The notes beneath the pieces were generated by a model. It saw only the letters and a program-made list of their open reading frames with translations, had not been told where the DNA came from and ran no database searches. The position numbers and the translations under genes are program-made. This document shows, one piece after another, positions 1 to 53,898 of a stretch of DNA of 64,000 bases (the stretch's first letter is position 1; each line of letters starts with the position of its first letter). The stretch lies in NCBI GenBank assembly GCA_021851895.1, contig JAJZQJ010000001.1, positions 71,338-135,337 on the forward strand, in the 5' to 3' direction. This stretch comes from a bacterium. GTDB taxonomy: Bacteria; Patescibacteriota; Minisyncoccia; Phycocordibacterales; UBA6899.

Positions 1-697
1 AGGTTGTAATTGTCCCAACCGTCGATGTCGATACGCACGATGATACGTTCCACTGCCAATTGTAACCATTCCATGTACCGCAAGCGAGTGTGCCACCACC
101 ACTACCACCGCCACTTGGGGTCGAGGTTGCACCAGTTGCCAAAACAATCGCCTGAGTGGATCCAATAGTATAACCGCCGACATCCCCACCTGAAGCAACG
201 AGAGTATCGCTCGGTGCCTCCAGCGACACTGCGCTCAAAGCATACGACACTGTTCCCTGTGGCGGTATATACCGATAGTAATTTGTTGCATTGTTCAAGG
301 GATCAAGTGGGAGCATTGAAATCAATGACCCACCAGAAGCACCAGCAAGATCGATCGGCAGCCAGCCAGTACCATCGACATTCCTCAGACTGCCAGCAAG
401 TACACACCGATAACTCCATCCTGATTGCAACGCGGGCAAACTCCAGCTCGCACACGTTGATGACGTATCAGGAAGTGATACGTAGACTGTATTCGCACTA
501 CCATAGTTCGCACCAGAGACACTTGCCGCATATACTCCAATCGCTCTATCTACAGTAGAAAGATCTGCCACGCGACGCGCATCACGAGCCTTCGCACGCG
601 CCTGCGCTAACGCAACGAGCACGACGCTCGAGATGAGTGTGATGATTGCGATAACGACAAGAAGTTCAATGAGGGTAAAACCTTTTTTGCGAGTCAT
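1..697 (-). CDS. Type IV prepilin-like protein, paralog 1 (partial; C-terminal part lies upstream of window)
   Basis: Minus-strand reading from ATG at 695-697 gives [47 protein letters not shown]..., a class-III (prepilin) signal/methylation motif. Open frame continues to position 1 with no stop. DNA at 1-40 is homologous to 1595-1640 of paralog 2. A downstream segment reads ACGTWNGYNWQWN, matching CATWNGYGWQWN of paralog 3. Not in the ORF track because it lacks a stop inside the window. Confidence 0.7.
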   Translation of the reverse strand, partial: MTRKKGFTLIELLVVIAIITLISSVVLVALAQARAKARDARRVADLSTVDRAIGVYAASVSGANYGSANTVYVSLPDTSSTCASWSLPALQSGWSYRCVLAGSLRNVDGTGWLPIDLAGASGGSLISMLPLDPLNNATNYYRYIPPQGTVSYALSAVSLEAPSDTLVASGGDVGGYTIGSTQAIVLATGATSTPSGGGSGGGTLACGTWNGYNWQWNVSSCVSTSTVGTITT

Positions 698-703
698 GAT
701 TCA

Positions 704-732
704 ATTATAATATAGCGAATGATGTTATACAA
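704..732 (-). promoter_or_regulatory. Sigma70-like promoter of pilin paralog 1 (TTGTAT-17-TATAAT), -10 ends 6 nt before ATG
   Basis: Minus strand reads TTGTATaacatcattcgctatatTATAATtgaatcATG. An almost identical cassette is repeated at 2231-2259. Confidence 0.55.
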
Positions 733-745
733 TGTATAGTGTCAC

Positions 746-773
746 AAAAACAGAACCACTGGTTCTGTTTTAT
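746..773 (-). terminator. Rho-independent terminator overlapping stop of pilin paralog 2
   Basis: aaaaACAGAACCActgGTTCTGTttttat. The paralogous copy at 2276-2298 carries compensatory changes (ACAGGACCAttgGTCCTGT). Confidence 0.6.
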
Positions 774-2224
774 CGCGCTACGATCTTCGTAACACTATTA
801 CCTCCCCTGTTTGCAGTCCATATATTTAAACCATCGAAAGTAATACCCACGGGGCCCGCACCCGTTCCCGTAAAGGTCGTCATTGGCGTTGGACTGAGTG
901 GATCGATCCTTGTCACACTATTGCCCGTATTATTTGCCGTCCACAAATATTTTCCATCAAACACGATCCCACTTGGACTTCCACCAGTCCCCGAATAAGT
1001 CGCAATGAGGGCCCCATTCGCTGGGTTGAACTTCGAAACACTATTAGTGTTATAATTCGTCGTCCATAAATAGGTGCCATCATATGCAATACCGAAGAGA
1101 TTAGCTCCGGATCCTGCCGTTGTATTCATTCCACCTGTTGTTATATCTATCTTTGTGATTCCGCTTACTCCCCAATTTGCTGTCCACATAGATGTTCCAT
1201 CAAATACGATCCCTGTCGGAATTGACCCAAGTCCCGAATAACTCGTTGTAGCACCTGAGGAAGTAACCTTGGTAACCGCATTTGATGCTTGATCCACTGC
1301 CCACATATTCGCACCATCAAAAGCTATGAAATAGGGATTCGTCAATGTTCCTCCATATGTTGTCATGGTTCCTGTAGGAGTCACCTTCGTCACACTATTT
1401 CCATTCCAATTCGTAACCCACATGTTCGTACCATCGAACGCAATACCTTCAGGATTTGCGCCAGTTCCAGGGTAATTGGTCATACTCCCATCTGTCGTGA
1501 TCTTTGTAACACTGTTCGTATTATAATTAGCAGTCCAGACGTTGTTTCCATCAAATGCGATTGCATAAGGACTTGCGCCAATACCCGTATAGGTTGTCAT
1601 TGTTCCAACTGTCGATGTCGATGAACATGAGGTATTGTACGTAAAGCTATACCCATTCCACGTTGCGCAAACAGGCGCGCCACCTCCACCTCCACCAGTT
1701 CCTGCGGCAATACCACCCCCCTCAGCAGAACCGATGTTCAGCACATAGTTGAATCCATTCGCGAGTGCATTTGTGCCATCACATGCTGCTGCGATCGTCG
1801 TTGAAGATTGTGCCAAAGCGCTCTGTTCGACTTTCACAAAAATACTATAATCCGACGAAGTAGCACAAACACCAAGATAATATGCACCATCACCATAGAC
1901 GGGGTCAATGAGATTGGTATTAGAATAGGTGTCTGCGTTCTTCAGGGCAGTAATGATCGACGTCGTGTAATCGGTCACGCCACTCTTTGCAAAGTATCCT
2001 GCACCCGTATTTTGGTATCCAGCACCTGCAACACGATATGATCCAGTACTCGTCTGATAAAGTTCAAGCGCGGTGCGGAGCTGCACTGCATTCGCCAAAC
2101 GATTCGCGTCACGTGACTTCACCCGTGCTTGCGAAAGTGCGACAAGCACGACGCTCGAGATAAGTGCGATGATCGCAATGACAACAAGGAGTTCGATGAG
2201 GGTAAAACCTCTATGACGATTCAT
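770..2224 (-). CDS. Type IV pilin-like protein fused to C-terminal beta-propeller repeat domain, paralog 2 (484 aa)
   Basis: N-terminus [24 protein letters not shown] (prepilin cleavage/methylation motif G|FTLIE), followed by a pilin-like head ([14 protein letters not shown]...). The C-terminal half has ~7-8 repeats of ~38 aa (P.GIAFDG.N.W.AN...NSVTKIT..G..TTY.G.G) resembling Vgb-lyase/NHL-type propeller blades. Confidence 0.75.
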
Positions 2225-2230
2225 GATTCA

Positions 2231-2259
2231 ATTATAATATATCGGATGCTGTTATACAA
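2231..2259 (-). promoter_or_regulatory. Sigma70-like promoter of pilin paralog 2 (duplicate of 704-732 cassette)
   Basis: Minus strand reads TTGTATaacagcatccgatatatTATAATtgaatcATG: 17-nt spacer, -10 is 6 nt from the start codon. Confidence 0.55.
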
Positions 2260-2275
2260 TGTATAGTGTCTGAAA

Positions 2276-2298
2276 AACAGGACCATTGGTCCTGTTTT
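2276..2298 (-). terminator. Rho-independent terminator of pilin paralog 3
   Basis: aaaACAGGACCAttgGTCCTGTttt, directly after the stop of 2297..3733. Confidence 0.6.
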
Positions 2299-3733
2299 AT
2301 CTTGCCACGATCTTCGTGATCGAACTTGAGTTATAATTCGGCGCCCACATACTTGTCCCATCGAATGTGATACCTGCGGATCCAACACCGGTCACCGCAT
2401 ACGAAGTAACACTTCCCAATGGAGTGATGCGTGATACCGTACTTGCGGTATAATTCGCGGTCCACATATTGATGCCATCGAACGCGATACTATTAACACC
2501 GGCACCGGTACCACCATAAGTCGACATCGCACCTGCAGGAGTGATTTTTGTCACACTCGCACCACCATTATTGCCTGTCCACATATTTGTACCGTCAAAT
2601 GCAATGGCGGCCGGATTTGATCCCGTTCCACCGTATGTTGTTATCGTCCCCGCAGGAGTGATCTTACTCACACTGTTTCCATTGAAATTCGCGGTCCACA
2701 TGTTCGTTCCATCAAAGGCGATGCCGTCAGGCTGTAAGCCCGTAGCGGCATAGGTCGTCATTGTACCCGATGGAGTGATCTTCGTTACATTATTATCTTG
2801 CCAATTTGCAGTCCACATATTCACTCCATCAAAAGCAATACCCGACGGCTTTGCTCCTGTACCTGTATATGTGGTCATGACTCCTGAAGGCGTGATCTTT
2901 GTCACACTATTCCCCCCTTGATTGGCGGTCCACATATTCGTCCCATCAAATGCAATATCGATCGGAGATAAACCAGTTCCCACATATGTTGTTGTTGCGC
3001 CCAAAGGAGTGATCTTCGTAACACTATTGCTCCCAAAATTGACCACCCACATATTCGTCCCATCGAATGCAGCAATACGTGGCTTCACCTGAAGACCAGG
3101 ATAATTTGTCACTGTGCCGAGAGCTGCGCCGGCCGTACAGGAGAGATTCCATTGCCAGCCGTAGCCATTCCACGTCGCGCAAACTTGCTGGGCAGGAGTA
3201 CCCTGTCCTGCAGCAAGACCAGCGCCACCTTCCGCTGAGCCAACATCCAATACGTAATTAAAACCATTCGCAAGTGCATTTGCTCCATCGCAGGCTGCAC
3301 CTACAGTTGTCGTCGATTGCGCGAGTGACGACTGCTCAAGCTTAAGAAAAATTGAATAGACCGAAGAGGTCGAACAAACTCCGAGAAAATATTCTGAATC
3401 TCCAAAAACGGGATCGACGAGATTTGATTGTGAATAATAACCGGAATTCTTGAGCGCACTGGTGATTGACGTTGCATAATCGACAACCCCTCCGCGTGTC
3501 ATGAATCCAGCACCCGTATTTTGGTATCCCGCACCTGCAACACGATATGATCCAGTACTCGTCTGATAAAGTTCAAGCGCGGTGCGGAGCTGCACTGCAT
3601 TTGCAAGACGATTCGCATCACGTGATTTCACGCGCGCTTGAGATAATGCAACAAGCACAGCGCTCGAGATAAGTGCGATGATCGCAATGACGACAAGGAG
3701 TTCGATGAGAGTGAAAGCTCTTCTATGAAACAT
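2297..3733 (-). CDS. Type IV pilin-like protein fused to C-terminal beta-propeller repeat domain, paralog 3 (478 aa)
   Basis: [24 protein letters not shown] prepilin N-terminus. The first ~70 aa are near-identical to paralog 2, then diverge. It carries eight [26 protein letters not shown] blades. Confidence 0.75.
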   Translation of the reverse strand: MFHRRAFTLIELLVVIAIIALISSAVLVALSQARVKSRDANRLANAVQLRTALELYQTSTGSYRVAGAGYQNTGAGFMTRGGVVDYATSITSALKNSGYYSQSNLVDPVFGDSEYFLGVCSTSSVYSIFLKLEQSSLAQSTTTVGAACDGANALANGFNYVLDVGSAEGGAGLAAGQGTPAQQVCATWNGYGWQWNLSCTAGAALGTVTNYPGLQVKPRIAAFDGTNMWVVNFGSNSVTKITPLGATTTYVGTGLSPIDIAFDGTNMWTANQGGNSVTKITPSGVMTTYTGTGAKPSGIAFDGVNMWTANWQDNNVTKITPSGTMTTYAATGLQPDGIAFDGTNMWTANFNGNSVSKITPAGTITTYGGTGSNPAAIAFDGTNMWTGNNGGASVTKITPAGAMSTYGGTGAGVNSIAFDGINMWTANYTASTVSRITPLGSVTSYAVTGVGSAGITFDGTSMWAPNYNSSSITKIVAR

Positions 3734-3794
3734 ACTATTATTATACTATATTTTTTATAGTATAAAGCACAAACAAAAACATCCTTTCGGATGT

Positions 3795-5588
3795 TTATGC
3801 TGTGACTTGACGCTTTGCTTTCGAGCGCTCTGTCTCAGTGAGGAGCTTCTTGCGCAAACGAATACTCTTTGGAGTAATCTCGAGATATTCATCATCATCC
3901 ATGATCTCCATACCGTTCTCGATACCGAGCACAACAGGAGGCACGAGATTGATCGCCTCATCAGAACCCGATGCACGCATGTTCGTGAGCTGCTTACCCT
4001 TTGTTGGATTCACAAGCATCTGCTCTCCCTTGCTCGTATTGCCGATGATCATTCCTTCGTATACTTCAGTCGTTGGAGTGATATATATTTCTCCGCGCTC
4101 CTGAAGATTCCAAAGCGAGAAAGCAAGTGCCTTACCGGACTCCATAGAGATCATCGCTCCCGCATTGCGGTGATCGATCTCTCCTGCCCATGGGCGGAAT
4201 CCGATGACGCGCGAAGACATAATACCTTCTCCGCGCGTATCAACGACAAATTGCATACGATAGCCAAGGAGTCCACGTGTTGGGCCCTCGAAAATCATAC
4301 GGACCATATTGTCATGCTGCACCATGTGCGTCATGACAGCGCCGCGCTTACCGAGCTTCTCGATCACCACGCCCTGTGATACGGATGGGACGTCGATAGT
4401 GACTTCCTCGAAAGGCTCGCTCTTAACGCCATCGATCTCTTTCACAATGACCTGCGGCTGTGAAATCTGGATTTCAAACCCTTCACGGCGCATGTTTTCG
4501 AGCAAGATAGCAATATGAAGCTCACCACGTCCTGCGACGCGAAAAGACTCACCCGAAGCGGAGTCAAAATCAACACGGAGACCGACGTTCACTTCGAGCT
4601 CCTTCTCGAGTCGCTCGCGAATCTGGCGACCGGTAACGAATTTACCTTCACGGCCTGCAAACGGAGAGTTATTGACGAGGAAGTTAAGCTCGATCGTCGG
4701 CTCATCGACAGTGATCATTGGAAGCTGCTCTACATCTGCAGAGTGTGCGATAGTCTCACCGATAAAGACATCGGGAATACCTGCAATGATACCGATATCA
4801 CCCGAAACGAGCTCGGGAACCTCAACGCGCTTGATACCGCGGAATGCGAAAAGCTTCGTGATCTTCGCTTTGCGCGCGACTCCATTATTCAAGACAATAA
4901 GATTATCCGCATCCTTCACAACACCGTCGACAACGCGAACGACTGCGAGGCGTCCAAGATAATTATCGTATGCGAGATTAAATGGCTGCGCACGCATTGG
5001 GAGCGAGGTATCGCCATTTGCAACCGGAACATACTCAAGGATCATATCAAGAAGTGGCGTGAGATCCTTACGCTCGTCATCAAGCTTGCGCATCGCAACG
5101 CCTTCGCGTCCGATCGCATAGCACACATGAAAATTCATCTGCTCCTGCGTTGCGCCGAGATCCATGAAAAGCTCGAGCACTTCCTCTTCTACGCGATGAG
5201 GATCAGCTGCAGGCTTGTCGATCTTGTTTATAACAACGATCGGCTTAAGACCCAAGTCGAGAGACTTCTTCAAGACGAAGCGCGTCTGTGGCATAGGACC
5301 TTCCTGGGCATCAACAATAAGGAGCACGCTATCGATCGAGCGCAAGACACGCTCAACTTCGGATCCGAAATCCGCGTGGCCTGGTGTGTCCACGATGTTG
5401 ATCTTTGTGTCCTTGTAGTATGCTGCAGTGTTCTTCGAGTAGATGGTGATGCCACGCTCAAGCTCAAGCGAGTTCGAGTCCATTGATTCACCCTCTGCAA
5501 ACATGCCCGTTTGGCGCATCAGCGCATCGGTCAATGTGGTCTTTCCGTGGTCGACGTGTGCGATGATCGCGATGTTGCGAATTTCCAT
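3795..5588 (-). CDS. typA: Translational GTPase BipA/TypA
   Basis: [30 protein letters not shown]... G-domain with TypA-like length and C-terminus. The ORF-track start at 5618 adds 10 residues; the conserved N-terminus begins at the second Met (5588). Confidence 0.9.
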
Positions 5589-6049: not shown

Positions 6050-7492
6050 ATGAACTCATCCCGATCACACTCCTCGCGCGGAGGCTACGGAGACCGCCCG
6101 AAAGGTGGAGCACGCTCCTACGGACCACGCCCGTCTTTCGGTGACCGCAAGCCAACAGGTGCGCGCAAGTCATACGGAGACAAACCATCGTTTGGCAGCC
6201 GCCCTTCATTTGGCGAAAGGAAATCGTATGGAGATCGTCCATCATTTGGCGATCGCAAGCGCTCTCCATTTGGTGAACGTAAGTCATTTGGTGATCGAAA
6301 ACCATTTGGAGATCGTAAACCATTCGGAGATCGTCCATCCTATTCTGATCGACCAAGGAAATCATTTGGCGACAGACCATCATTCGGGGATCGCCCATCA
6401 TTCGGTGATCGCCCTCGAAGGTCATTCGGTGATCGTCCATCATTCGGGGATCGTAAGCCTTTCCGAGATGGCATGCGCTCTGAACATTCAGCACGATCGT
6501 TCTCACGAGCGCCTCGCGAGGAAAAGCCTGTCGAGAAGGAAGATTACTTCCCAAAGACATCTCGACGAAATGTCACACGAAGCTTCGACCAAGACTTCGA
6601 GAAAAAGAAGAGTGCACCAAAGAGTGAGCGCCCTTCTCTCATGAACGATGTCATGGCGCAAGCGACGAATGAGGCGGATACGCTGACTCCGCGAAAGCAA
6701 AAGGCGTACATGCGTACGACACCACAAAGCGCAACACCAAAGACCTCTTGGGGTGATGTGTCATCATGGTACGACGAGCATCTTGAAAATGAAACAGACA
6801 CCTATCACCTTCAAGTGATCCTTCCAAATCTCAAGCGCTTGATCACACCAGAGAATGGCACAAGCGTACTCGAGCTCGCCTGCGGACAAGGATTCTTTAC
6901 ACGACGTTTTCAGGATGCTTTCCCTGATGCGACCTTTGAAGGCGTCGATATTGGTGATGAGCTTATCGCTATCGCGCAGAAACGTGCACCGAAGATGCAT
7001 TTCGCGGTTGATAATGCGGAGGAACTGAAAACGATCGCTGATGCTTCGTTCGATACGGTGTACATCGTGCTCGCGATACAGAACATCGAGAACATGGAGA
7101 AACTCTTTGGGGAAGTCTCTCGTGTACTCAAACCGTCTGGAACATTCCATGTTGTCATGAACCACCCCGCGTTCCGCATACCAAGAGAATCATCTTGGGA
7201 ATATGTTGACGATAAGGGTATTCAAGCGAGACGCATCGATGCGTATCTCACGAACTCGAAAGTGAGTATGGAGATGCATCCGGGAATCATTGGTGCACCG
7301 CAGACCATCTCATTCCATCGCCCACTGCAAACCTACTTCAAACAACTTACGAAGTATGGCTTCGCTGTCGACCGACTTGAGGAGTGGATCTCTCATAAGG
7401 TGAGCGATTCAGGCCCACGCAAGGATGCTGAGAATAAAGCACGTAAAGAGTTCCCCCTCTTTATGTATCTCCGCGCAAAGAAACTTGGATAA
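6050..7492 (+). CDS. Class I SAM-dependent methyltransferase with ~170-aa N-terminal (R/K)SFGDRP tandem-repeat low-complexity region
   Basis: C-terminal half has VLELACGQGFF (motif I), DTVYIVLAIQNIEN and VLKPSGTFHV typical of the Methyltransf_11/25 fold. The N-terminal 6050-6560 encodes >15 degenerate copies of SFGDR(K)P. Confidence 0.7.
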   Translation: MNSSRSHSSRGGYGDRPKGGARSYGPRPSFGDRKPTGARKSYGDKPSFGSRPSFGERKSYGDRPSFGDRKRSPFGERKSFGDRKPFGDRKPFGDRPSYSDRPRKSFGDRPSFGDRPSFGDRPRRSFGDRPSFGDRKPFRDGMRSEHSARSFSRAPREEKPVEKEDYFPKTSRRNVTRSFDQDFEKKKSAPKSERPSLMNDVMAQATNEADTLTPRKQKAYMRTTPQSATPKTSWGDVSSWYDEHLENETDTYHLQVILPNLKRLITPENGTSVLELACGQGFFTRRFQDAFPDATFEGVDIGDELIAIAQKRAPKMHFAVDNAEELKTIADASFDTVYIVLAIQNIENMEKLFGEVSRVLKPSGTFHVVMNHPAFRIPRESSWEYVDDKGIQARRIDAYLTNSKVSMEMHPGIIGAPQTISFHRPLQTYFKQLTKYGFAVDRLEEWISHKVSDSGPRKDAENKARKEFPLFMYLRAKKLG

Positions 7493-9670: not shown

Positions 9671-9694
9671 AAAACCCTAAGAAGGGTTTTTAAT
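9671..9694. terminator. Bidirectional rho-independent terminator (rpoD 3' end / convergent plus-strand transcripts)
   Basis: aaAAACCCTaagaAGGGTTTTtaa, overlapping the rpoD stop. Confidence 0.6.
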
Positions 9695-11060
9695 AATTGC
9701 GCAATTTATTGATGTTCTCGTGCTGCCTGATCTTCTCATGCGCTTTCGCCTCGATCTGCCTGATACGCTCACGTGTCACTCCAAACTCCTTACCCACTTC
9801 CTCAAGCGTATGCTGTACACCATCTTCAAGTCCATGACGCATCTCGAGGATCTTTCGCTCCTTTGGAGAGAGCTCCGCGAGTACCTCTTGGATTTGCTCC
9901 GAGAGAATGAGGCGCGAAACCTCTTGATCTGGAGAAAGTATACGTTCATCAGGTATGAATTCGCCGAGTGTTGACTTATCCTCATCATCACCGATCGGCT
10001 TTTCGAGTGAAACCGTATCTTGATCGATGTTCTGAATATTACGCACGCGCTCGACTTCGATGCCCATCTCCATGGCGATTTCCTCAGCCATTGGCTCACG
10101 GCCGAGATCCTGAGTCAAACGGCGGTGCACCTGCTTGTATTTTGCGATCGTCTCAACCATGTGTACCGGAATACGAATGGTACGCGATTGATCAGCGAGC
10201 GCACGGGTGATCGCCTGGCGAATCCACCACGTCGCGTAGGTGCTGAACTTGAATCCCTTTGACCAGTCAAATTTATCAACGGCTCGGAAGAGTCCGAGAT
10301 TACCCTCCTGAATGAGATCGAGCAAAGTAAGGTCTGGGGAACGACCGACATATTTCTTTGCGATCGAAACGACAAGACGGAGGTTTGCACGTGCAAGAAG
10401 TCCCATTGCCTCCTCATCGCCCGCAGCGATACGCTGCGCGAGCTCACGCTCATCTTTTGCAGTAAGCAATGGATACTGACCGATTTCGCGGAGATACATC
10501 TGTGTAGAATCTCCACCTGCACCCTTGCCAAGCTTTCGATTGATAAGCTCCTCATCGGTATGCACATCAAGGAGACCACCTGACTCTATGACATCAACAC
10601 CAAGGTTCGAAAGTTTCTCGTAGATATCATCAAGGAAATCGATATTGTTCTCTATGTCAGGATATGTGCGCAAAATCTCATCATACGTTACAAAGCCACG
10701 CTCCCTGCCGCGATGCACCAGCGACTGCAACTTATCCTCGAGGCCCTTTCGTGCGCGCTCGCCCGTCTTTGGTGGATTCGGTGCAAGTTTTACCTTTTCA
10801 AGCTTCGACGGCTTTGTGCTCGTCTTTGCAGTAGCCTTCTTTGCAGTGGCTTTCGACTGCACAACCTTCTTTGAGGCAGCATTCTTTGAAACAACCTTCT
10901 TGACCGCTGGCTTCTTTGCCGGTGCCTTCTTTATGACAGGCTTCTTCACCGCGACCTTTTTTGTCACGGGCTTCTTTACCACCACTTTCTTTGTGGTGAC
11001 CTTTTTCGCTGAAACAGTCTTTTTGACCGCAGCCTTAGTAGTCTTCTTTGTCGTCGGCAT
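9690..11060 (-). CDS. rpoD: RNA polymerase sigma factor RpoD (sigma-70) with lysine-rich N-terminal extension
   Basis: Regions 1.2-4 are recognisable: [23 protein letters not shown]; [40 protein letters not shown]; [20 protein letters not shown]. The first ~95 aa are KK(P/V/A) repeats. Confidence 0.95.
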
Positions 11061-11139: not shown

Positions 11140-12906
11140 CTACATGAGATGCGCACGTTGACGCATTCTATCTTCCACAGCGATTATTCTCGGTGCAAGA
11201 GCGCGATATTGTGCCATGTATTCTGAAGTATCCTCCTTTGCACTCTCCGCACGTGAAATCTCTCTGAAAAGTGATTCTTGTTTCTCTTTAAGCAATTCTC
11301 TTTCAACGCGATCAAGTAACTCTTCAGCAATTTCCTGCAATTTAGCGTCTTTACCATAACGACTTTCAGCGGTGATGAGCAAACGCGCTGCATCAGCCTC
11401 GCCCGGCTCGACGAAATCTATTTCGAGCTCTTTGTAGAGCTGCGCATGTCTTGCCCTTATTTCTTCATGAGCAAGCGTCGATTCTTTGTGAATCTCCTGC
11501 CACAAGAGCAAGCCGATAAGTTCATCACTCACGCGCACAAGCGTCGAGACCGCGTTCATAGATGGTGGACTCACTGGGGGTTCCACTTCGCGCTCCCGCT
11601 GCTCACTAAACGGTTCATTCTTACTGCGAAAGCGTTCGATATCCTTCCAAGCTGAATCTTCGGGTATCTCGAGCAAACGTGCGATCTCTGATATATATCG
11701 TGCACGCTTCATACTGCTCTGCATAATTGCTATGAGTGGGAAAATGTTTCGTTCCACGCGCTCCTGATTCTCATCGCGCGTCAATCGAAGCTTGCGAAGT
11801 GCATCAATGTAATAGAGTACGATATCCTTCGCATTCTCCAATACTGCGGGCCACTCTGCTTGATGCTCGAGTATGTAATCAGCCGGGTCCTTTCCTCCAG
11901 GCACCATAGCTGCACGCACGTCCATCTCTTCCCCGAGCGCAATAAGCGCACTACGGTATGACGCATTGATTCCTGCGGAGTCCGCATCGAGCAAGATGAT
12001 GACATGCTTGGTTAGCCTTTTAATGAGCTCAACCTGCTGCTTCGTCAGTGCTGTTCCTGATATTGCGATCGTATTCTCGCTTCCCGCTTGATGGGCCATG
12101 ATACAGTCCATCTGACCTTCAACGAGTATCGCAACATCAGCTTTTCGCATCGGCACTTTTGCGCGATCATACGCAAAGAGGACGCGAGATTTTTCATAGA
12201 GTTCACCCTCCGGAGAGTTGAGATACTTCGCCACGGGTGTACCATCGGGTGCCTTTTGGTCTCCCCAAACGCGGCCCGTGAATGCGATCACGCGACCCGA
12301 TGGATCCATGATCGGAAACATGATGCGACCGCGAAAAGTATCGTAATACCCGCGACCTTCGACTTTCTTGACCACACGAGAACGTTCTATTTCACTATCG
12401 GAGAATCCTTTTGATCGAAGCGCTTCATGGAGTGCACGCCACTCAAGTGGCGCAAAACCGATACGAAATTTTGCTATCGTCTCGTCAGTGAGACCTCGTC
12501 CATGAAGATACTCACGCACCTCGGGGTGCTCCACGAGATGCGCCTCGAAAAGTTTCGTCGACACTTCCATAAGTTCGATAAGGCGCTCTTTCGCTGATTT
12601 CTGCTGATCAAGTAGCGCTGAGCTTCGCTCAGGAAGCTGCACGCCCGCTCTTGCAGCGAGCAACTTCAGTGCCTCAGGAAAAGAAATGCCTTCGATCTCT
12701 TGTACGAATGTAAAGATATCACCACCCTTTGCGCAACCGAAACAATAAAATGCATCACGCGCAGGAGAAACATTAAATGATGGGCTGCGCTCCTTATGAA
12801 ACGGACAAAGCGCGCGGAAATTACTTCCTGCACGCTCCAACCTCACATATGTTCCAACTACATCGGCGATAGGTAGTCGTGCTTTTATCTGTGCGATATG
12901 GTCCAT
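11140..12906 (-). CDS. dnaG: DNA primase DnaG
   Basis: CHC2 zinc finger CPFHKERSPSFNVSPARDAFYCFGCAKGGDIFTFV and Toprim IILLDADSAG. Located upstream of rpoD, the classic MMS-operon order. Confidence 0.9.
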   Translation of the reverse strand: MDHIAQIKARLPIADVVGTYVRLERAGSNFRALCPFHKERSPSFNVSPARDAFYCFGCAKGGDIFTFVQEIEGISFPEALKLLAARAGVQLPERSSALLDQQKSAKERLIELMEVSTKLFEAHLVEHPEVREYLHGRGLTDETIAKFRIGFAPLEWRALHEALRSKGFSDSEIERSRVVKKVEGRGYYDTFRGRIMFPIMDPSGRVIAFTGRVWGDQKAPDGTPVAKYLNSPEGELYEKSRVLFAYDRAKVPMRKADVAILVEGQMDCIMAHQAGSENTIAISGTALTKQQVELIKRLTKHVIILLDADSAGINASYRSALIALGEEMDVRAAMVPGGKDPADYILEHQAEWPAVLENAKDIVLYYIDALRKLRLTRDENQERVERNIFPLIAIMQSSMKRARYISEIARLLEIPEDSAWKDIERFRSKNEPFSEQREREVEPPVSPPSMNAVSTLVRVSDELIGLLLWQEIHKESTLAHEEIRARHAQLYKELEIDFVEPGEADAARLLITAESRYGKDAKLQEIAEELLDRVERELLKEKQESLFREISRAESAKEDTSEYMAQYRALAPRIIAVEDRMRQRAHLM

Positions 12907-27566: not shown

Positions 27567-28025
27567 CTATGAACAGCTAAATACCAAACGATCGCCGATA
27601 TGAACTGGACTCCTCCTTCCGTCGAATGCGGGAATTTCAAGTACACGCTCTACGGGCACTTGAGAAGAAAACGTATTCGGATATGACTCTGGAGTTGCGT
27701 GCTCTGCGATACCTACGACATTCCAGTCCTTATCTACCCATATGATGTCTAGGGAGAACAACATGTCTTTCATCCAAAATATCCGTACCGATGGCGAAGG
27801 AAACAAGAATAGCATTCCTTCGTCCGGGGAAAGCGGCGCATGCCCGGAAAGCCCATGCGACCACTCTGATTGTGTAGTAGCAAGAGAGACTCGAAAAGTA
27901 GTAGTACTACCACTGATTTTCACAACCCCATTTTTACACCTTGTTGACGAGAAATAACCAGATATGAAAAAAAATATGATGACCATCGCGAACACTGGAC
28001 CAACAAAAACGAGAAGTCTTCTCAT
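27567..28025 (-). CDS. DUF192-family protein (COG1430)
   Basis: Signal/TM N-terminus; MKDMLFSLDIIWVDKDWNVVGI matches the DUF192 core. Confidence 0.55.
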   Translation of the reverse strand: MRRLLVFVGPVFAMVIIFFFISGYFSSTRCKNGVVKISGSTTTFRVSLATTQSEWSHGLSGHAPLSPDEGMLFLFPSPSVRIFWMKDMLFSLDIIWVDKDWNVVGIAEHATPESYPNTFSSQVPVERVLEIPAFDGRRSPVHIGDRLVFSCS

Positions 28026-35015: not shown

Positions 35016-36929
35016 TTATGCTGCATCGAGCCCTGTAAGGAATGATGCATCCCACGAATCCTTTATATCATTCGAGACTTCCTCGAGCAGCTCTTCTCGA
35101 CTCTTCTCCTGTGAATCCTCCGTAGCATTATCCACCGCAGAGGTGCGCATCGTAAGTGGAGCAAGCATCTCATCCCATGCGTCCTCTGGCATAGGCATAT
35201 TCGGTGGTAGCGCACGTATATCATTCGCTGGATGTTCGACATGTGGCTCTACTGGAATAACTACTGGCGGAGTCGGTTTACCGACTACCGAAACAAAAAC
35301 TTTTTGTGGCGCAGCAGATTCTTTCATCTCTGCGGATGTAGGTGCTCGTGCTGGTATACCTGGAGTCTTGTCGGCAATTGCGGCGACAGGCGTAGCATTC
35401 TCTTTTGTCTCCACTGATTCTTCAATATCCGCTGCTACAGAATAACGAGGAAATGATGGTCTCACCTCAGGATGCGTCGCATTCTGCACTGCGACTTTCG
35501 AGAAATGACTTGTGCGCATCCAAGGAAGCCATTCTGCAGCCCGAGCATGTGGTTGAGTAAAGACTGCTGCAACTTTTGGATATGCACCTGGAGCGACTGT
35601 TGCAAATGGTACCACCTTCGGAGGTAATGCGAGTGGATGCATCGATGGAGTCATTTGCTGGACAGTAAAATGCGGCACAGCGACAATGGGCTCACTAACA
35701 TCCTCACTCTCCTCCCCGACTTCGGTTTCAACTACTGGAGTCGGTGCACTTTCAAGACCCTCCTGCAATATACGATCTGAGACTTCTCTATCGATCGAAG
35801 GAGGAGTCTTATCGATAACGACTTCTGGTCGCGCACCCTGCGGTGGAAGTTCCTCTACTGCTTCATTCGATTCCACAGCCTCATCTTGCACATCATCAGG
35901 GATCTCTTGCTCGGAAGACGACACCTCATCATCCTTCGCAATCACGGGCTGCGGAGCAGCAACATCGTCCTCGTTTGTCGTAGTATCACCCTGCTGGTCA
36001 TTTTCATAATAAGGATTCATTTCACCCTGTTCGAGAAGTGGACGCTCCTCTGACTCCATGACCTCATGTTGCTCGGCGACTTCTACGGCCTGCACTTCGT
36101 GTATCCCTACCGCTCGTTCTGGCTCCTCTTCGACTGCGGTCGGAGTTTGCATTGCAATTGCACTCTCTGTAGGAACATCGACTGCAAGTTCTTTTTGAGT
36201 TTCGATTGCGTCCCCCGGCGCTTCTTCGATAGCCATTGCACCCCTTACTTCCGGCAATAGATCTTTTTGCGGTTCGACCTGCATGTTTTTTGGGACATCG
36301 AGGGTGACCTTTCCCGAATCTGCCGCTACTGATTTTTCTGACAATGGCGGCAAAAGCGGAGCATCATCAAAATGCTTCGCTGAATCAAGACTTGTCTTTA
36401 TTGGCCAGTGCTCCGGAAGAGACTTCCTCGTACTTGGTGGAGGTGGAGGCATTTCGATTATCGCATCAACGACATCCCCTCTAGCAACGGGAGTAGTCTC
36501 ATCAACACGAGCTGCTTCATCCTCAGAAATGATAGAGAATGGCAAAGGACCTCGCTTAAGTGGTGCAGGTTCAGATACCGCTCCGGCCACCATATCCACA
36601 GGATGATTTCCCACTACAGCTGATGGGTCACCAAGACCAAGTGCAATAAGTTGCGCTTTTGAAAGTCGAGGGATAGCGATCGCCTCTACCGCGACAAAAG
36701 GAATCGAGACATCTTCTCCAAGAGCTATTCCAAGTATCTTTAACAACTCGTGAAGATTAAGAAACAATTCACCGGATTTTCCTCCTGCACATGTTATGCG
36801 GCCATCAATACAAAGCCGCTCAATTCGTCCAGACGGCTGATTCGTCAAAGCGACAGCGACAGCGAGAGTCACGAAAGTATTCTTCAAATCCTGCCCTACG
36901 AAAGAAGCGCCGGAAGCTGTTTCGGTCAT
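35016..36929 (-). CDS. Hypothetical protein: ~130-aa N-terminal globular domain followed by ~500 aa acidic, Pro/Glu/Val-rich low-complexity region
   Basis: Long ORF with coherent codon usage. The central region is EEPERAVGIHEVQAVEVAEQHEVMESEERPLLEQGEMNPYYENDQQGD...EAVEELPPQG; I recognise no catalytic motif. Confidence 0.5.
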   Translation of the reverse strand: MTETASGASFVGQDLKNTFVTLAVAVALTNQPSGRIERLCIDGRITCAGGKSGELFLNLHELLKILGIALGEDVSIPFVAVEAIAIPRLSKAQLIALGLGDPSAVVGNHPVDMVAGAVSEPAPLKRGPLPFSIISEDEAARVDETTPVARGDVVDAIIEMPPPPPSTRKSLPEHWPIKTSLDSAKHFDDAPLLPPLSEKSVAADSGKVTLDVPKNMQVEPQKDLLPEVRGAMAIEEAPGDAIETQKELAVDVPTESAIAMQTPTAVEEEPERAVGIHEVQAVEVAEQHEVMESEERPLLEQGEMNPYYENDQQGDTTTNEDDVAAPQPVIAKDDEVSSSEQEIPDDVQDEAVESNEAVEELPPQGARPEVVIDKTPPSIDREVSDRILQEGLESAPTPVVETEVGEESEDVSEPIVAVPHFTVQQMTPSMHPLALPPKVVPFATVAPGAYPKVAAVFTQPHARAAEWLPWMRTSHFSKVAVQNATHPEVRPSFPRYSVAADIEESVETKENATPVAAIADKTPGIPARAPTSAEMKESAAPQKVFVSVVGKPTPPVVIPVEPHVEHPANDIRALPPNMPMPEDAWDEMLAPLTMRTSAVDNATEDSQEKSREELLEEVSNDIKDSWDASFLTGLDAA

Positions 36930-40867: not shown

Positions 40868-41803
40868 CTATCCTATAGCGATCTTCGCAAGCGCGAGCGC
40901 AGCGTCTTTTGTTTTCGCAATTGCAAGAAAACCCTTCTTGTGACAAAAGATACTCCCCTCTACTCCCGTCATCCTCTCGAGTTCCTCGCCCATGAGGCCA
41001 TACCAAGACAGCGGTAGTGGTCTCCTCGTAACGAATGTTGTGATATCGCTTCTGACCGCCTCAACTCTCCATTGATATACATCTGGCGAGAGGACCTGCG
41101 GAGAAACAACGTAGAGTGGTTCTGTATATTTCGATAACTCAGCCTCCCATGGAAGATCTTTGTCGAGAACAATGATACGTTTATCCTCGGTTTGATCATA
41201 AACAGCACGCACGAGACGTGCACCCTCTTGTTCATCCTTTGCGATCGTAAGCTCACGCTCCATGAAGCGTTTCGCAAGTGGAAGCAATTCCGAGAAAAGC
41301 ACATCGGCGTTTATACCCGCGTCCTTCTCCTTCCACGTAGGGTGAAATGCGAAGACGATGTGATGAAAAAGAAGCGGTCGTACGTTAGGGAATACTGGTT
41401 CATAAAGATTGAGTCCATTGTCTCCTGCGTCTACAGGATATGCGATCTTCTGTTCGATCGCATTCCAGGAAAAAATATTTCCATCACAAAGTTCGAGACC
41501 GAAATGCTTCCAGATCAGGCCGAATGATGAATATGGAATACCATCACGCTCCCCTACGCCCTCGCGCTGATGATGATCAAATCGCCCCGATGATGCATCG
41601 AGTACACCTCCGACGTCACACACGATATCACCGCCATCAATGACCTTCTGGTCCCGGGAGCGAACGACGACAGCAGAAAGTCCCTCCCGCTCAAGAAAAA
41701 TCTGCAAGGTTGCAACTGCAAGTAACTCATCAGCATGGAAAGAACCTGAATGCGTCACGATGCGCACAGGACGGTCGTGAGGAAGTGGACATGGAGAATT
41801 CAT
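40868..41803 (-). CDS. MYG1/UPF0160-family metal-dependent hydrolase
   Basis: IVTHSGSFHADELLAVATL (the family's THNGxFHxDE motif) plus conserved DHHQ. Confidence 0.7.
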   Translation of the reverse strand: MNSPCPLPHDRPVRIVTHSGSFHADELLAVATLQIFLEREGLSAVVVRSRDQKVIDGGDIVCDVGGVLDASSGRFDHHQREGVGERDGIPYSSFGLIWKHFGLELCDGNIFSWNAIEQKIAYPVDAGDNGLNLYEPVFPNVRPLLFHHIVFAFHPTWKEKDAGINADVLFSELLPLAKRFMERELTIAKDEQEGARLVRAVYDQTEDKRIIVLDKDLPWEAELSKYTEPLYVVSPQVLSPDVYQWRVEAVRSDITTFVTRRPLPLSWYGLMGEELERMTGVEGSIFCHKKGFLAIAKTKDAALALAKIAIG

Positions 41804-50643: not shown

Positions 50644-51843
50644 TTATGAACGAACGCCACACTGATCACAATGCATAAGTCCCTTATATCTATCTGCACC
50701 ACATGATGGGCACTTCTCCTTCACCTGGAATCCACAGACCGGACAGAAACGCATATCGTCGCGCAGGTGCATAGAACAATTCGGACACTTCATCGACTTC
50801 ATCGCACGAAGATATACCGCACGACCACTGAAGACCCTTTTTTGGATAAGATATACGATACCACCAAAGAGCAACGGCACCAATATCAAGAGAAGATACT
50901 GCACGATCGAAGCGAGGAACTTGAATTGTGCGAGGAATTTGAGAAGTACCTCAATGAATGCATGCGGGATGATATCGTAAATGAATACCGCAACCACTTG
51001 AGCGAAAAGCAGTACAAAGATCGTCGTCACCGCTGTCCATATGATCGCAGTAAACGATCGCTTCCCTTGTGCAATGAAATATCTTCGTAAAGCAAAGTAG
51101 AAGAGTGGAGTGATGAATAACAGCTCAAGTAGCGCGCGCAATGTATTTGCCCATGCAAGTGCGCTGTCATACCATGCAAATTCATCCTTCAAGGCATTCT
51201 GATGTGTGACCGCAATCGATGCGATCTGCGCGTCGATATCCTTTATTCGTGCCTCAAGCGGAGCAACCTTATCTGCGAGCAGCTTGCGCTGTTCTCTCGA
51301 AGCGAGTAGCGCCGATTGCACTCCACGTTGATCAGTGATCACGGGGGTCGGAACTCCCGCTTGCATCTCTTCCAGAGAAAGATTGTAATCCGATTTCGAG
51401 CTGCCAAGCTGCGCATCAATTGCAACAAGTGATGCGTTCAAGGTATCTAACTCTGATTGAACCACTCGGCGCTCGTCAAAAAGTGGCTTTACGGTGCCAA
51501 TGAGGGCACCCATGCCATGTGCGAGCTCATATGTCGTGAGTTTGCAATCTCGAAAAGTGTCGAAACCGTAATAGTAAAAACTCTTTGTAGACAATCCTCT
51601 CGTCTCGAGATCGAGTTGATCATGGAGTACAACAATGCAGGTCGACGGAGCCTCCGGTTGCTTGATATTCTCAGCGATCTTACGTATGAAACTTTGGCCC
51701 TGCCCGAAACCAACCATGACCATGATAACAAGAAGGATGTAACCAAGAACGGTCGTTCGCTTCTCGCCGATCTCAGGACCAACATGTTCATCGTTCGTCT
51801 CTGGAACTCGTGCGACTTTGCGCAAAAATGCAGATATATTCAT
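50644..51843 (-). CDS. Membrane protein with C-terminal double zinc-ribbon
   Basis: TM segments and coiled-coil region; C-terminus CPNCSMHLRDDMRFCPVCGFQVKEKCPSCGADRYKGLMHCDQCG. Confidence 0.45.
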   Translation of the reverse strand: MNISAFLRKVARVPETNDEHVGPEIGEKRTTVLGYILLVIMVMVGFGQGQSFIRKIAENIKQPEAPSTCIVVLHDQLDLETRGLSTKSFYYYGFDTFRDCKLTTYELAHGMGALIGTVKPLFDERRVVQSELDTLNASLVAIDAQLGSSKSDYNLSLEEMQAGVPTPVITDQRGVQSALLASREQRKLLADKVAPLEARIKDIDAQIASIAVTHQNALKDEFAWYDSALAWANTLRALLELLFITPLFYFALRRYFIAQGKRSFTAIIWTAVTTIFVLLFAQVVAVFIYDIIPHAFIEVLLKFLAQFKFLASIVQYLLLILVPLLFGGIVYLIQKRVFSGRAVYLRAMKSMKCPNCSMHLRDDMRFCPVCGFQVKEKCPSCGADRYKGLMHCDQCGVRS

Positions 51844-53151: not shown

Positions 53152-53898
53152 CTACTTCTTCTTGCCCCCCTTCTTGCCGCCCTCTTCCTGCTTCTTGCCG
53201 CCGCCGACCCCGATCTTGCCGGGGTACAGCGCGGCACGGCTCATCTGGTTGGCGCGCTGCCTGCTCTCGCGAGCCTTGCGCTCCTCGGCCTTATCGGCCT
53301 CGGACTCCGGGCCAGCGACGCGCCGGTAGAGCGTCAGCGGCTGATGGAGCTCAGGGTGGAACAGGACCAGCTGGCCGACGTTCTCGGCCTTGACGATGAA
53401 CCCGCAGCTGACCCACTCCTCATTGCTGAGGTGGTGCTTCAGCTCGGACTCGATGACCTCGCAGGTGGAGGTGATGATCGCGGGGACCTTCGTGCCGGTC
53501 GTCTTGATGGCGACGAGCACCTGGACCTTCTCGGTGAAGTAGGCCTTCGCCCCGAGGAGCACAGCCGCGCGCAGGAGCGCACTCATGCGCTTGCCGCGCT
53601 TCTCCACGTTGTCGGCCTTGAGGTTACCGAGGACGAAGTCGTGCTGCACGACGAGGAGCTTCTCGGGAATCTCCCGGGGCGCGTAGCGCGCCAGGTCCCT
53701 GAAGACGAACTCGGGGAGGAGGCCATTCTCGATGAAGAGATCGGCCGCCTCGGAGAACTTGTGCTCCTTGAGCAGCTCCTTGAGCGTCTTGATGTTGGCG
53801 TCGAACTTGTCCGGGCGCACGAACGACGGGGGCTTGGGCCCCTGCTTCTTGCTGGTCTTGTCGGTGGTGGCGGCCGGAGCCGAGGCCTGGGTGGCCAT
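53152..53898 (-). CDS. Hypothetical protein encoded in GC-rich islet (248 aa, K/G-rich C-terminal tail)
   Basis: GC-rich with strong GC3 bias, unlike all neighbouring genes. GAGGTG sits 5 nt upstream of the ATG. The protein is non-repetitive, whereas the opposite-strand ORFs read as L/E/G/R junk. C-terminus GGGKKQEEGGKKGGKKK. I recognise no family. Confidence 0.5.
   Translation of the reverse strand: MATQASAPAATTDKTSKKQGPKPPSFVRPDKFDANIKTLKELLKEHKFSEAADLFIENGLLPEFVFRDLARYAPREIPEKLLVVQHDFVLGNLKADNVEKRGKRMSALLRAAVLLGAKAYFTEKVQVLVAIKTTGTKVPAIITSTCEVIESELKHHLSNEEWVSCGFIVKAENVGQLVLFHPELHQPLTLYRRVAGPESEADKAEERKARESRQRANQMSRAALYPGKIGVGGGKKQEEGGKKGGKKK

Follow-up and report, generated by a model that had tools for sequence, protein, structure and literature searches.

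Organization of the array

The window, the whole stretch of 64,000 nt analysed here (contig JAJZQJ010000001.1, assembly GCA_021851895.1), begins within an array of genes for putative modular type IV pilins, each with a prepilin N-terminus and a C-terminal beta-propeller. The array lies downstream of typA on the minus strand. Two open reading frames (ORFs) are complete in the window, at 770–2224 (484 aa, copy 2) and 2297–3733 (478 aa, copy 3). A third, copy 1, is truncated by the window start, with the first 232 of its 499 codons at 2–697. Contig L001 of the European Nucleotide Archive (ENA), which differs from the window by 1 mismatch over 12,224 overlapping nt, gives copy 1 at its full length (499 aa) and a 479-aa paralogue (copy 0) next after it. 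A response-regulator gene on the opposite strand follows copy 0.

The slot between typA and the response-regulator gene, in which the array spans L001:8431–14697, holds four genes, in the order copy 3 (478 aa), copy 2 (484 aa), copy 1 (499 aa) and copy 0 (479 aa). A preliminary description of the window, made from its sequence, had reported three minus-strand genes; these are real, and the further paralogues for which it recommended a search are represented by copy 0, beyond the window start. Six-frame translation of the window reveals just three prepilin motifs, those of copies 1–3. The paralogues are 42–61% identical over whole proteins and ~57–66% identical in DNA outside a shared 5' stretch, with ~90 nt as the longest near-identical stretch between copies. 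The array proteins are on record in three contigs, and the ENA and NCBI assemblies both include the region. An exact-sequence look-up of the four proteins in a cluster table found no match; a contig look-up did. The genes and their parts are as follows.

2–697, minus strand: copy 1, 5' part, with leader, alpha1 helix, type-B head, Gly-rich linker and Cys-bounded WNGY junction motif
185–232, minus strand: copy 1 junction motif
L001:11528–13027, beyond the window start: remainder of copy 1, including its seven-bladed propeller
770–2224, minus strand: copy 2, 484 aa, with type-A pilin module, linker, junction motif (Cys186–Cys200) and seven-bladed propeller
~773–1606, minus strand: copy 2 propeller, from residue ~207
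2297–3733, minus strand: copy 3, 478 aa, complete, defined by Pfam/NCBIfam and AlphaFold2
2300–3118, minus strand: copy 3 propeller
3119–3238, minus strand: copy 3 Gly-rich linker with the CATWNGYGWQWNLSC motif
3137–3181, minus strand: copy 3 junction motif, where AlphaFold2 confidence is low, as it is for the junction motif of copy 1
3239–3553, minus strand: copy 3 pilin head with Cys120/Cys148
3554–3715, minus strand: copy 3 alpha1 helix
3716–3733, minus strand: copy 3 leader

Pilin modules and head types

All four copies begin with a canonical prepilin signal, M-x4-(G/A), and all four retain Glu5. Matches to PF07963 (N_methyl; 30–36 bits, cut-off 21.2) and TIGR02532 (29–33 bits, cut-off 16.3) are above cut-off in every copy, which bears out the canonical prepilin leaders first described; a class III signal peptide is recognizable in each. 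In the AlphaFold2 model of copy 3, built on a 54-sequence alignment (mean predicted local distance difference test score, pLDDT, 85.5), residues 9–60 form a helix (pLDDT 80–94). Residues 86–165 form a head modelled with moderate confidence (pLDDT 67–89), with a Cys120/Cys148 pair. The model thus has the long helix and small head of a pilin.

The array contains two unrelated types of pilin head. Copies 3, 2 and 0 have heads of type A, as do the single orthologue of a close relative and the homologues P0001 and P0004. Type B occurs in copy 1 and the homologues P0012, P0015, P0024, P0043 and P0048. Copy 1 had been recognized from the outset as unlike copies 2 and 3, and it has a pilin head of a different family from the other three copies.

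Profiles of both N-module types, compared with the PDB, match solely type IV pilins and pseudopilins (Thermus PilA4, Geobacter PilA, GspG, PpdD and PilE; E 3.5e-9 to 1e-4), and the match to Thermus PilA4 reaches residue 93. In addition, the type-A module is 42% identical over residues 6–146 to a stand-alone 184-aa pilin of a close relative, which sits 8 kb from the same slot in that genome. Since both head profiles match solved pilins, and given this identity to a stand-alone pilin, the N-terminal part is predicted to be a full pilin module, more than a signal-anchor. The proteins are prepilin::beta-propeller fusions and not standard major pilins, as the preliminary description had it.

Linker and junction motif

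Residues 166–205 of copy 3, between head and propeller, are a low-confidence Gly-rich stretch in the AlphaFold2 model and include CATWNGYGWQWNLSC. This Gly-rich tether of ~40 residues carries a Cys-bounded aromatic motif. The consensus of the junction motif, usually bounded by Cys residues and placed between the Gly-rich linker and the propeller, is (S/T)WNG(Y/S)x(W/F). It is present in all array members, in the relative's orthologue and in 7/15 prepilin-bearing homologues, which include both head types (P0001, P0004, P0011, P0012, P0015, P0043 and P0048). None of the 105 non-pilin proteins that carry the same propeller contains it.

Propeller domain

The two proteins complete in the window both score above the cut-off of 50 bits for the Vgb_lyase family, PF24684 (73 and 71 bits). 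Their blades, of the form FDGxx(M/I/V/L)W, number exactly seven in each protein, with a period of 39 residues in copy 3 and 39–41 in copy 2, and a 117-nt repeat corresponding to the blades is visible in the DNA. A propeller had been correctly recognized in the preliminary description, which had put the blades at 7–8 of ~38 residues. In copy 3 the propeller occupies residues 206–478, with pLDDT 97–98. Structurally it matches Vgb lyase best, the NHL and YVTN folds are close, and YncE is also amongst the fold matches; model and fold search therefore agree with the three nearest folds guessed beforehand (Vgb lyase, NHL, YVTN). The blades are near-consensus repeats resembling those of designed 'Pizza' propellers, and there are weak matches to SGL and Lactonase in Pfam.

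The likeness to Vgb is in the seven-bladed fold and the Pfam family, but it does not extend to the catalytic and Mg2+-associated His and Glu residues or to the score required for Vgb(A). The four propellers contain 0 His and 0–1 Glu, and their scores against the Vgb(A) model NF000022 are 36–45 bits, compared with a cut-off of 600. Vgb needs Mg2+, which is held by conserved polar residues in blades 6–7 (PMC8916777), and PDB entry 2z2p is, by its title, an inactive H270A mutant of Vgb. Because of the residue counts and the Vgb(A) scores far below cut-off, the propeller is predicted to be Vgb-like in fold with the catalytic residues lost, and the proteins not to be lyases.

Variation between blades is unevenly distributed. 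Amongst 18 canonical 39-residue blades, the B–C loop is the most variable segment (mean entropy 2.10 bits); high values of 2.1–3.5 bits are also reached at blade positions 2, 3, 5 and 6, in the D–A loop and at the start of strand A. The conserved parts are strands B and C and the A–B loop, where entropy is lowest (0.53 bits). In copy 1, blades 5–7 (L001:12647–12932) form a 117-nt tandem repeat at 84% identity, which suggests recent blade duplication or conversion within the gene.

Promoters, terminators and intergenic cassettes

The genes of the array are separated by short regions that combine the intrinsic terminator of one gene with the sigma-70-type promoter of the next. The elements in the window are as follows.

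698–769, minus strand: intergenic cassette 1, copy 2 terminator and copy 1 promoter
704–709 and 727–732, minus strand: copy 1 promoter, -10 TATAAT and -35 TTGTAT, with a 17-nt spacer and 6 nt to the ATG
747–771, minus strand: cassette 1 terminator hairpin (copy 2), overlapping the stop codon and followed by a U-tract
2225–2296, minus strand: intergenic cassette 2, copy 3 terminator and copy 2 promoter
2231–2236 and 2254–2259, minus strand: copy 2 promoter, -10 and -35, with 6 nt to the ATG
2274–2298, minus strand: cassette 2 terminator hairpin (copy 3)
3734–3776, minus strand: copy 3 promoter region, -10 TATAAT at 3740–3745, 6 nt before the ATG, with a weak -35
3777–3796, minus strand: typA terminator hairpin (-12.3 kcal/mol, z -4.8), the proximal boundary of the array

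The two cassettes are 72 nt each, with 64/72 positions identical. In both, an A-tract, a hairpin and a U-tract come directly after the stop codon and are followed by TTGTAT, a 17-nt spacer, TATAAT, 6 nt and the ATG. Folding energies of the hairpins are -12.5 and -14.9 kcal/mol (z -3.7 and -4.7). A simple terminator scan overlooked them, the U-tract being partly within the stem, and folding revealed them. The combined promoter and terminator of the preliminary description is real on this evidence, as is its duplication; the cassette had been given as ~75 bp and almost exactly repeated, and its extents are those listed above. Of the eight differing positions, two form a compensatory stem pair (A-U to G-C), one is in the loop, two follow the U-tract and three are in the promoter spacer; both promoter hexamers are unchanged. 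Compensatory substitution in the hairpin had also been proposed; the change is genuine, and consists of a single pair in two copies, for which chance was estimated at ~0.03.

Similarity extends from the cassettes into the flanking coding DNA. A 224-nt segment at 82% identity, made up of the propeller 3' end, the cassette and the first ~30 codons, links the boundary between copies 3 and 2 with that between copies 2 and 1. The cassettes precede copies 1 and 2, and the near-identical 5' coding sequence is common to copies 2 and 3. The arrangement is accordingly a mosaic and not one simple repeat unit.

In copy 3, copy 0 and the relative's orthologue, the -10 hexamer also ends 6–8 nt before the ATG. 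The genes typA, copy 1 and copy 0 have terminator hairpins of their own, which are unrelated. This spacing and these individual hairpins suggest that the four genes are probably separate transcription units, with leaderless or nearly leaderless mRNAs. Such promoters are not special to the array, since 12/45 genes in the window have a -10-like hexamer ending 3–10 nt before the start codon, seven of them at exactly 6 nt; the corresponding figure for random positions is 2.6%. A Shine–Dalgarno-like motif precedes only 3/45 genes of the window. Leaderless mRNAs appear to be widely used in this genome, and further examples are the genes at 35016–36929, 40868–41803, 50644–51843 and 27567–28025. A full-text literature search for leaderless translation in Patescibacteria found no paper.

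Copy number, gene conversion and selection

Comparison of the slot between typA and the response-regulator gene reveals four copies in the genome of the window, one type-A gene in a relative (L092:11798–13327) and none in another (L090:11786–11813). TypA of both relatives is 97% identical to that of the window. The single orthologue is 59% identical to copy 3, within a range of 53–97% for the neighbouring genes, the fastest of which are at 53–61%. The array gene evolves fast but unexceptionally.

The near-identical N-termini of copies 2 and 3, and the divergence of their propellers, are as first described. Two paired segments can be delimited.

3505–3721, minus strand: gene-conversion tract, copy 3 side, pairing with 1996–2212 (repeat family D3)
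1996–2212, minus strand: gene-conversion tract, copy 2 side, 217 nt at 91% identity, of which ~90 nt are almost identical

Between copies 2 and 3, the synonymous substitution rate (dS) is 0.083 in codons 46–77 and 0.56 in codons 6–45, and is saturated elsewhere. Copy 0, which has the same head type, is saturated over those codons as well. For these reasons the near-identity of copies 2 and 3 appears to be a recent gene-conversion tract, and not the product of purifying selection alone. The segments that recombine correspond to repeat families D3 and D4. Unequal recombination could plausibly act on them, and would explain why copy number differs.

Diversifying selection had been proposed from the combination of a conserved anchor and a diverging distal domain, and the analysis does not demonstrate it. 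The conserved part is accounted for by gene conversion. The ratio of nonsynonymous to synonymous rates (dN/dS) in the propellers is ~0.25, well below 1, on saturated dS. With dS saturated outside the conversion tract, dN/dS provides no test of positive selection, for or against. Propeller-only identities are flat, at 42–62%, even in comparison with non-pilin proteins, and are too flat for a useful tree.

Homologues, carrier modules and linkage to pilus genes

This uncultivated, ultra-small bacterium belongs to the Candidate Phyla Radiation (CPR); the proteins that cluster with its TypA and RpoB carry the name Candidatus Paceibacterota. Proteins of the CPR and Paceibacterota commonly contain the propeller. 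Amongst the best 120 propeller homologues, ~15 have a prepilin N-terminus and ~105 have non-pilin N-termini, most of the latter with a Sec signal and Ig-like (Big_12) and/or peptidoglycan-binding domains, or with a transmembrane anchor. This distribution points to a shuffled surface module.

Several homologues are encoded with pilus genes. P0068 adjoins the 3' end of a pilB (T2SSE)–pilC (T2SSF) pair; upstream are two small pilins, downstream a weak pilin and a weak PilN-like gene. Others lie in pilin islands, including one 13.5-kb stretch with five pilin genes, two of which encode pilin::propeller proteins. The neighbours of homologues also include a pilin::Laminin_G_3 fusion (L007:9117–9983) and a 486-aa pilin with a DUF6242-like C-terminus (L006:3576–5036). 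Laminin_G_3 is a lectin-type module seen in Streptococcus sanguinis PilC (PMC8179133).

In an exhaustive search with the type-A module (residues 1–205), long proteins of 330–2343 aa made up most of the closest relatives. In these the same module (41–54% identity, ~175 aa) carries Kelch, RCC1, DUF5122 or EPTP/DUF6242-like propeller-type modules (set P0132–P0175; RCC1 in P0164 and P0175). Plain pilins of 160–190 aa appear only as more distant matches. One CPR pilin module thus carries at least five propeller families, Vgb/NHL-like, Kelch, RCC1, DUF5122 and EPTP-like, so that propellers have been grafted repeatedly onto a single carrier. The array proteins, which join a pilin module to a domain that is not specific to pilus biology, have the make-up of modular pilins. 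The matches listed in a family-alignment scan of genome contigs, in which the generic GFTLIELLV pattern was dominant, were mostly unrelated pilins of Planctomycetota and Verrucomicrobiota, and there was no full-length pilin::propeller relative amongst the best 80 loci.

Proposed function and alternative explanations

Taken together, the array is fairly likely to be a lineage-specific set of modular type IV pilins in which non-catalytic propellers serve as binding heads on filaments. The pilus-displayed adhesin of the preliminary description is therefore retained as the best interpretation, with the position of P0068 after pilB–pilC, the occurrence of homologues amongst pilin genes and the propellers without catalytic residues in its support. 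In the mechanism proposed, each precursor, once expressed, would be cut after Gly/Ala-1 by prepilin peptidase. The ~52-residue alpha1 helix and the small head would let the protein enter a type IV filament built by PilB and PilC, and the ~40-residue Gly-rich tether, with its disulfide-bounded aromatic hairpin, would hold the seven-bladed propeller out. The propeller, which varies mainly in the B–C and D–A loops, would most likely act as a ligand-binding head, probably an interchangeable one; its ligand would probably be a glycan or protein borne by a partner cell or a surface, and four paralogues could offer four specificities. The array may enlarge and contract by unequal recombination at the repeats formed by the propeller 3' end, the terminator–promoter cassette and the pilin 5' end, its junctions being homogenized by gene conversion as the propellers drift apart. 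If the lineage is assumed to be episymbiotic, these proteins are good candidates for host attachment.

Several points weigh against this interpretation. A search for pilB, pilC, pilD, pilM, pilT and other pilin genes, recommended in part by the preliminary description, found none in the window or its flanks of ~9 kb on either side. The presence of the machinery in this genome is assumed from CPR-wide surveys, in which type IV pilus genes are enriched (PMC6744442). The same propeller is also displayed on non-pilus anchors, and the pilin-like N-terminus could be a mere membrane anchor. Residue -1 is Ala, not Gly, in copies 3 and 0. Ala at this position is cleaved less efficiently in pilin mutants of Pseudomonas aeruginosa. 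The AlphaFold2 model of the type-B N-module (window 2–697, 9-sequence alignment) has a pLDDT of 44.6, too poor to judge the fold, and was left out of the fold search. Finally, the B–C and D–A loops are placed on one face by convention, from the usual topology of propellers.

The same proteins might instead be subunits of the filament body and not of its tip, co-polymerizing along the filament as major pilins do, with tethered propellers along its whole length. This is unlikely, although the pilin module is complete and major-pilin-like, as its 42% identity to the stand-alone pilin indicates, Glu5 is present in all four copies and every copy has a perfect TATAAT promoter. On the low-confidence Gly-rich tether a bulky module might extend outwards from the filament, and a location in the body is possible with a flexible linker (PMC8179133). 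It would be no more likely that 'bottle-brush' pili of this kind display a surface mosaic of the four propellers, the repertoire being reshuffled and resized by cassette recombination, as in the 0, 1 or 4 copies of close relatives; were this true, the slot would be a host-range determinant. No small major pilin was seen near the array, however, and the modular pilins characterized so far are scarce proteins, placed at the tip in models (PMC8179133, PMC11623550). Amongst the solved filaments matched there is also no precedent for subunits that each bear a 30-kDa module.

Somewhat less probable still is that the prepilin-like N-terminus serves only to export the protein and anchor it in the membrane, or to build a short structure of the pseudopilus or bindosome kind, so that the propellers lie on the cell surface and not on long pili. 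Pilus machinery is absent within ~82 kb, most homologues display the propeller on Sec-signal, Ig-like and peptidoglycan-binding anchors, and the N-terminus partially matches the pseudopilins GspG and GspH, below cut-off. This explanation is opposed by the conservation of a full pilin head beyond the signal-anchor, by the location of P0068 in a pilB–pilC operon, and by Glu5 and the 52-residue helix, which are features of assembly.

A role in DNA binding, with the proteins as minor pilins of a competence pilus, is very improbable. Some homologues are labelled 'DNA-binding beta-propeller fold protein YncE' by JGI, YncE is amongst the fold matches, and genome surveys have connected CPR pili with the uptake of DNA (PMC6744442). 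The propellers, however, are not basic (copy 3: 10 Asp, 8 Lys, 3 Arg and 0 Glu), the divergence of the four paralogues and their variable loops would suit varied ligands better than DNA, and there are no com genes nearby.

A surface-tethered enzyme, either a Vgb-type lyase or an SGL/lactonase-type hydrolase, would fit the PF24684 score, the weak SGL and Lactonase matches and the best structural match, but it is effectively excluded by the lack of His and near-lack of Glu, the Mg2+ and polar-residue requirement of Vgb, the inactivity of the H270A mutant, the low Vgb(A) scores and the near-consensus, 'Pizza'-like blades. Least credible of all, and effectively excluded as well, is an assembly artefact of collapsed or chimeric paralogues, which the preliminary description had named as a possible undoing of the array: short near-identical segments do occur between copies, but the identical stretches of ~90 nt are shorter than typical reads, the copies are otherwise only ~57–66% identical in DNA, L001 agrees at 12,223/12,224 nt, the proteins are on record in three contigs, the region is included in assemblies of both ENA and NCBI, and all ORFs are intact.

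Other features of the window

The remaining genes of the window include housekeeping genes such as typA, rpoD, dnaG, rpoBC, lepA, murJ, gatB and groEL. An Rfam scan of the window found a single tRNA and no other family. A putative class I S-adenosylmethionine-dependent methyltransferase (6050–7492, plus strand) has an N-terminal extension of ~140 residues composed of degenerate (K/R)(P/S)SFGDR repeats; its orthologues in relatives are of 435 and 483 aa. RpoD (9690–11060, minus strand) has a Lys-rich N-terminal extension that matches the histone H1-like HC2 family (PF07382, residues 3–83) below cut-off. Two ORFs, at 35016–36929 (minus strand, 637 aa) and 53152–53898 (minus strand, 248 aa), have no Pfam match at E<=0.01. 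About 7.3 kb past the window end, a giant protein of 6297 aa with DUF2341 domains begins at L093:19084–21770, and is probably another large surface protein.

Comparison with known systems

The locus bears on the question of how CPR bacteria outside the Saccharibacteria recognize and hold their partners, for which it offers concrete candidates from an uncultivated lineage of Paceibacterota. It supplies four clonable, soluble propellers of ~270 residues, confidently modelled, on canonical pilin carriers. In addition, the variation between 0, 1 and 4 copies amongst close relatives could be tracked in metagenomes as a marker of shifts in host or niche.

Modular pilins are an established and widespread class, proposed to be located at the pilus tip (PMC8179133; Raynaud et al., 2021). 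The supplementary list of architectures in that study already includes two comparable singletons, in which the pilin bears NHL repeats (one protein) or RCC1 repeats. The S. sanguinis proteins PilB, which has a vWA module, and PilC, which has a lectin module, share with the array proteins a prepilin motif, a small complete pilin module, a linker and a bulky domain that is also found outside pili. A binding role for the grafted module has been demonstrated for PilB and PilC, and would hold by analogy here. Unlike PilB and PilC, the array proteins carry a seven-bladed Vgb/NHL-like propeller on a ~40-residue linker with a Cys motif, and comprise four separately transcribed paralogues with two types of head.

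The best functional precedent is PilX2 of Nanosynbacter lyticus TM7x (Saccharibacteria), a propeller-bearing minor pilin needed for efficient host binding (PMC11623550). Both systems consist of a CPR pilin with a C-terminal seven-bladed propeller. The PilX2 propeller, however, is of RCC1 repeats and its authors report no predicted PilD signal, whereas the proteins described here have a G/A-FTLIE signal and a Vgb/NHL-like propeller. The array proteins have no Pfam match to RCC1, and the likeness is architectural only, the two being set apart by description. PilX2 is encoded within a pilus locus, and the array is without one.

The PilY1/PilC tip adhesins of Pseudomonas and Neisseria also have a seven-bladed, pilus-associated propeller; PilY1 is not a pilin and docks on minor pilins by means of its own type of propeller. 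The propeller of PilY1 is thus separate from the pilin, whereas here it is covalently fused to it, and the array proteins have no Pfam match to the PilY1-type propeller (IPR008707) at E<=1. In comparison with Vgb, NHL and YVTN propellers, those of the array lack the catalytic His and Glu, form an extracellular domain on a pilin and are built of near-consensus blades.

Gene conversion between linked pilin paralogues is a feature shared with pilE/pilS of Neisseria. In contrast to that system, the copies here are complete and have their own promoters, and conversion affects the conserved 5' region and the cassette in place of the variable region; the array gave no sign of programmed switching. 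From the PilX2-type architecture the array differs in its propeller family, its canonical prepilin signal, its tether with a junction motif and its four-gene organization. It introduces no new principle, and extends the known principle of modular pilins.

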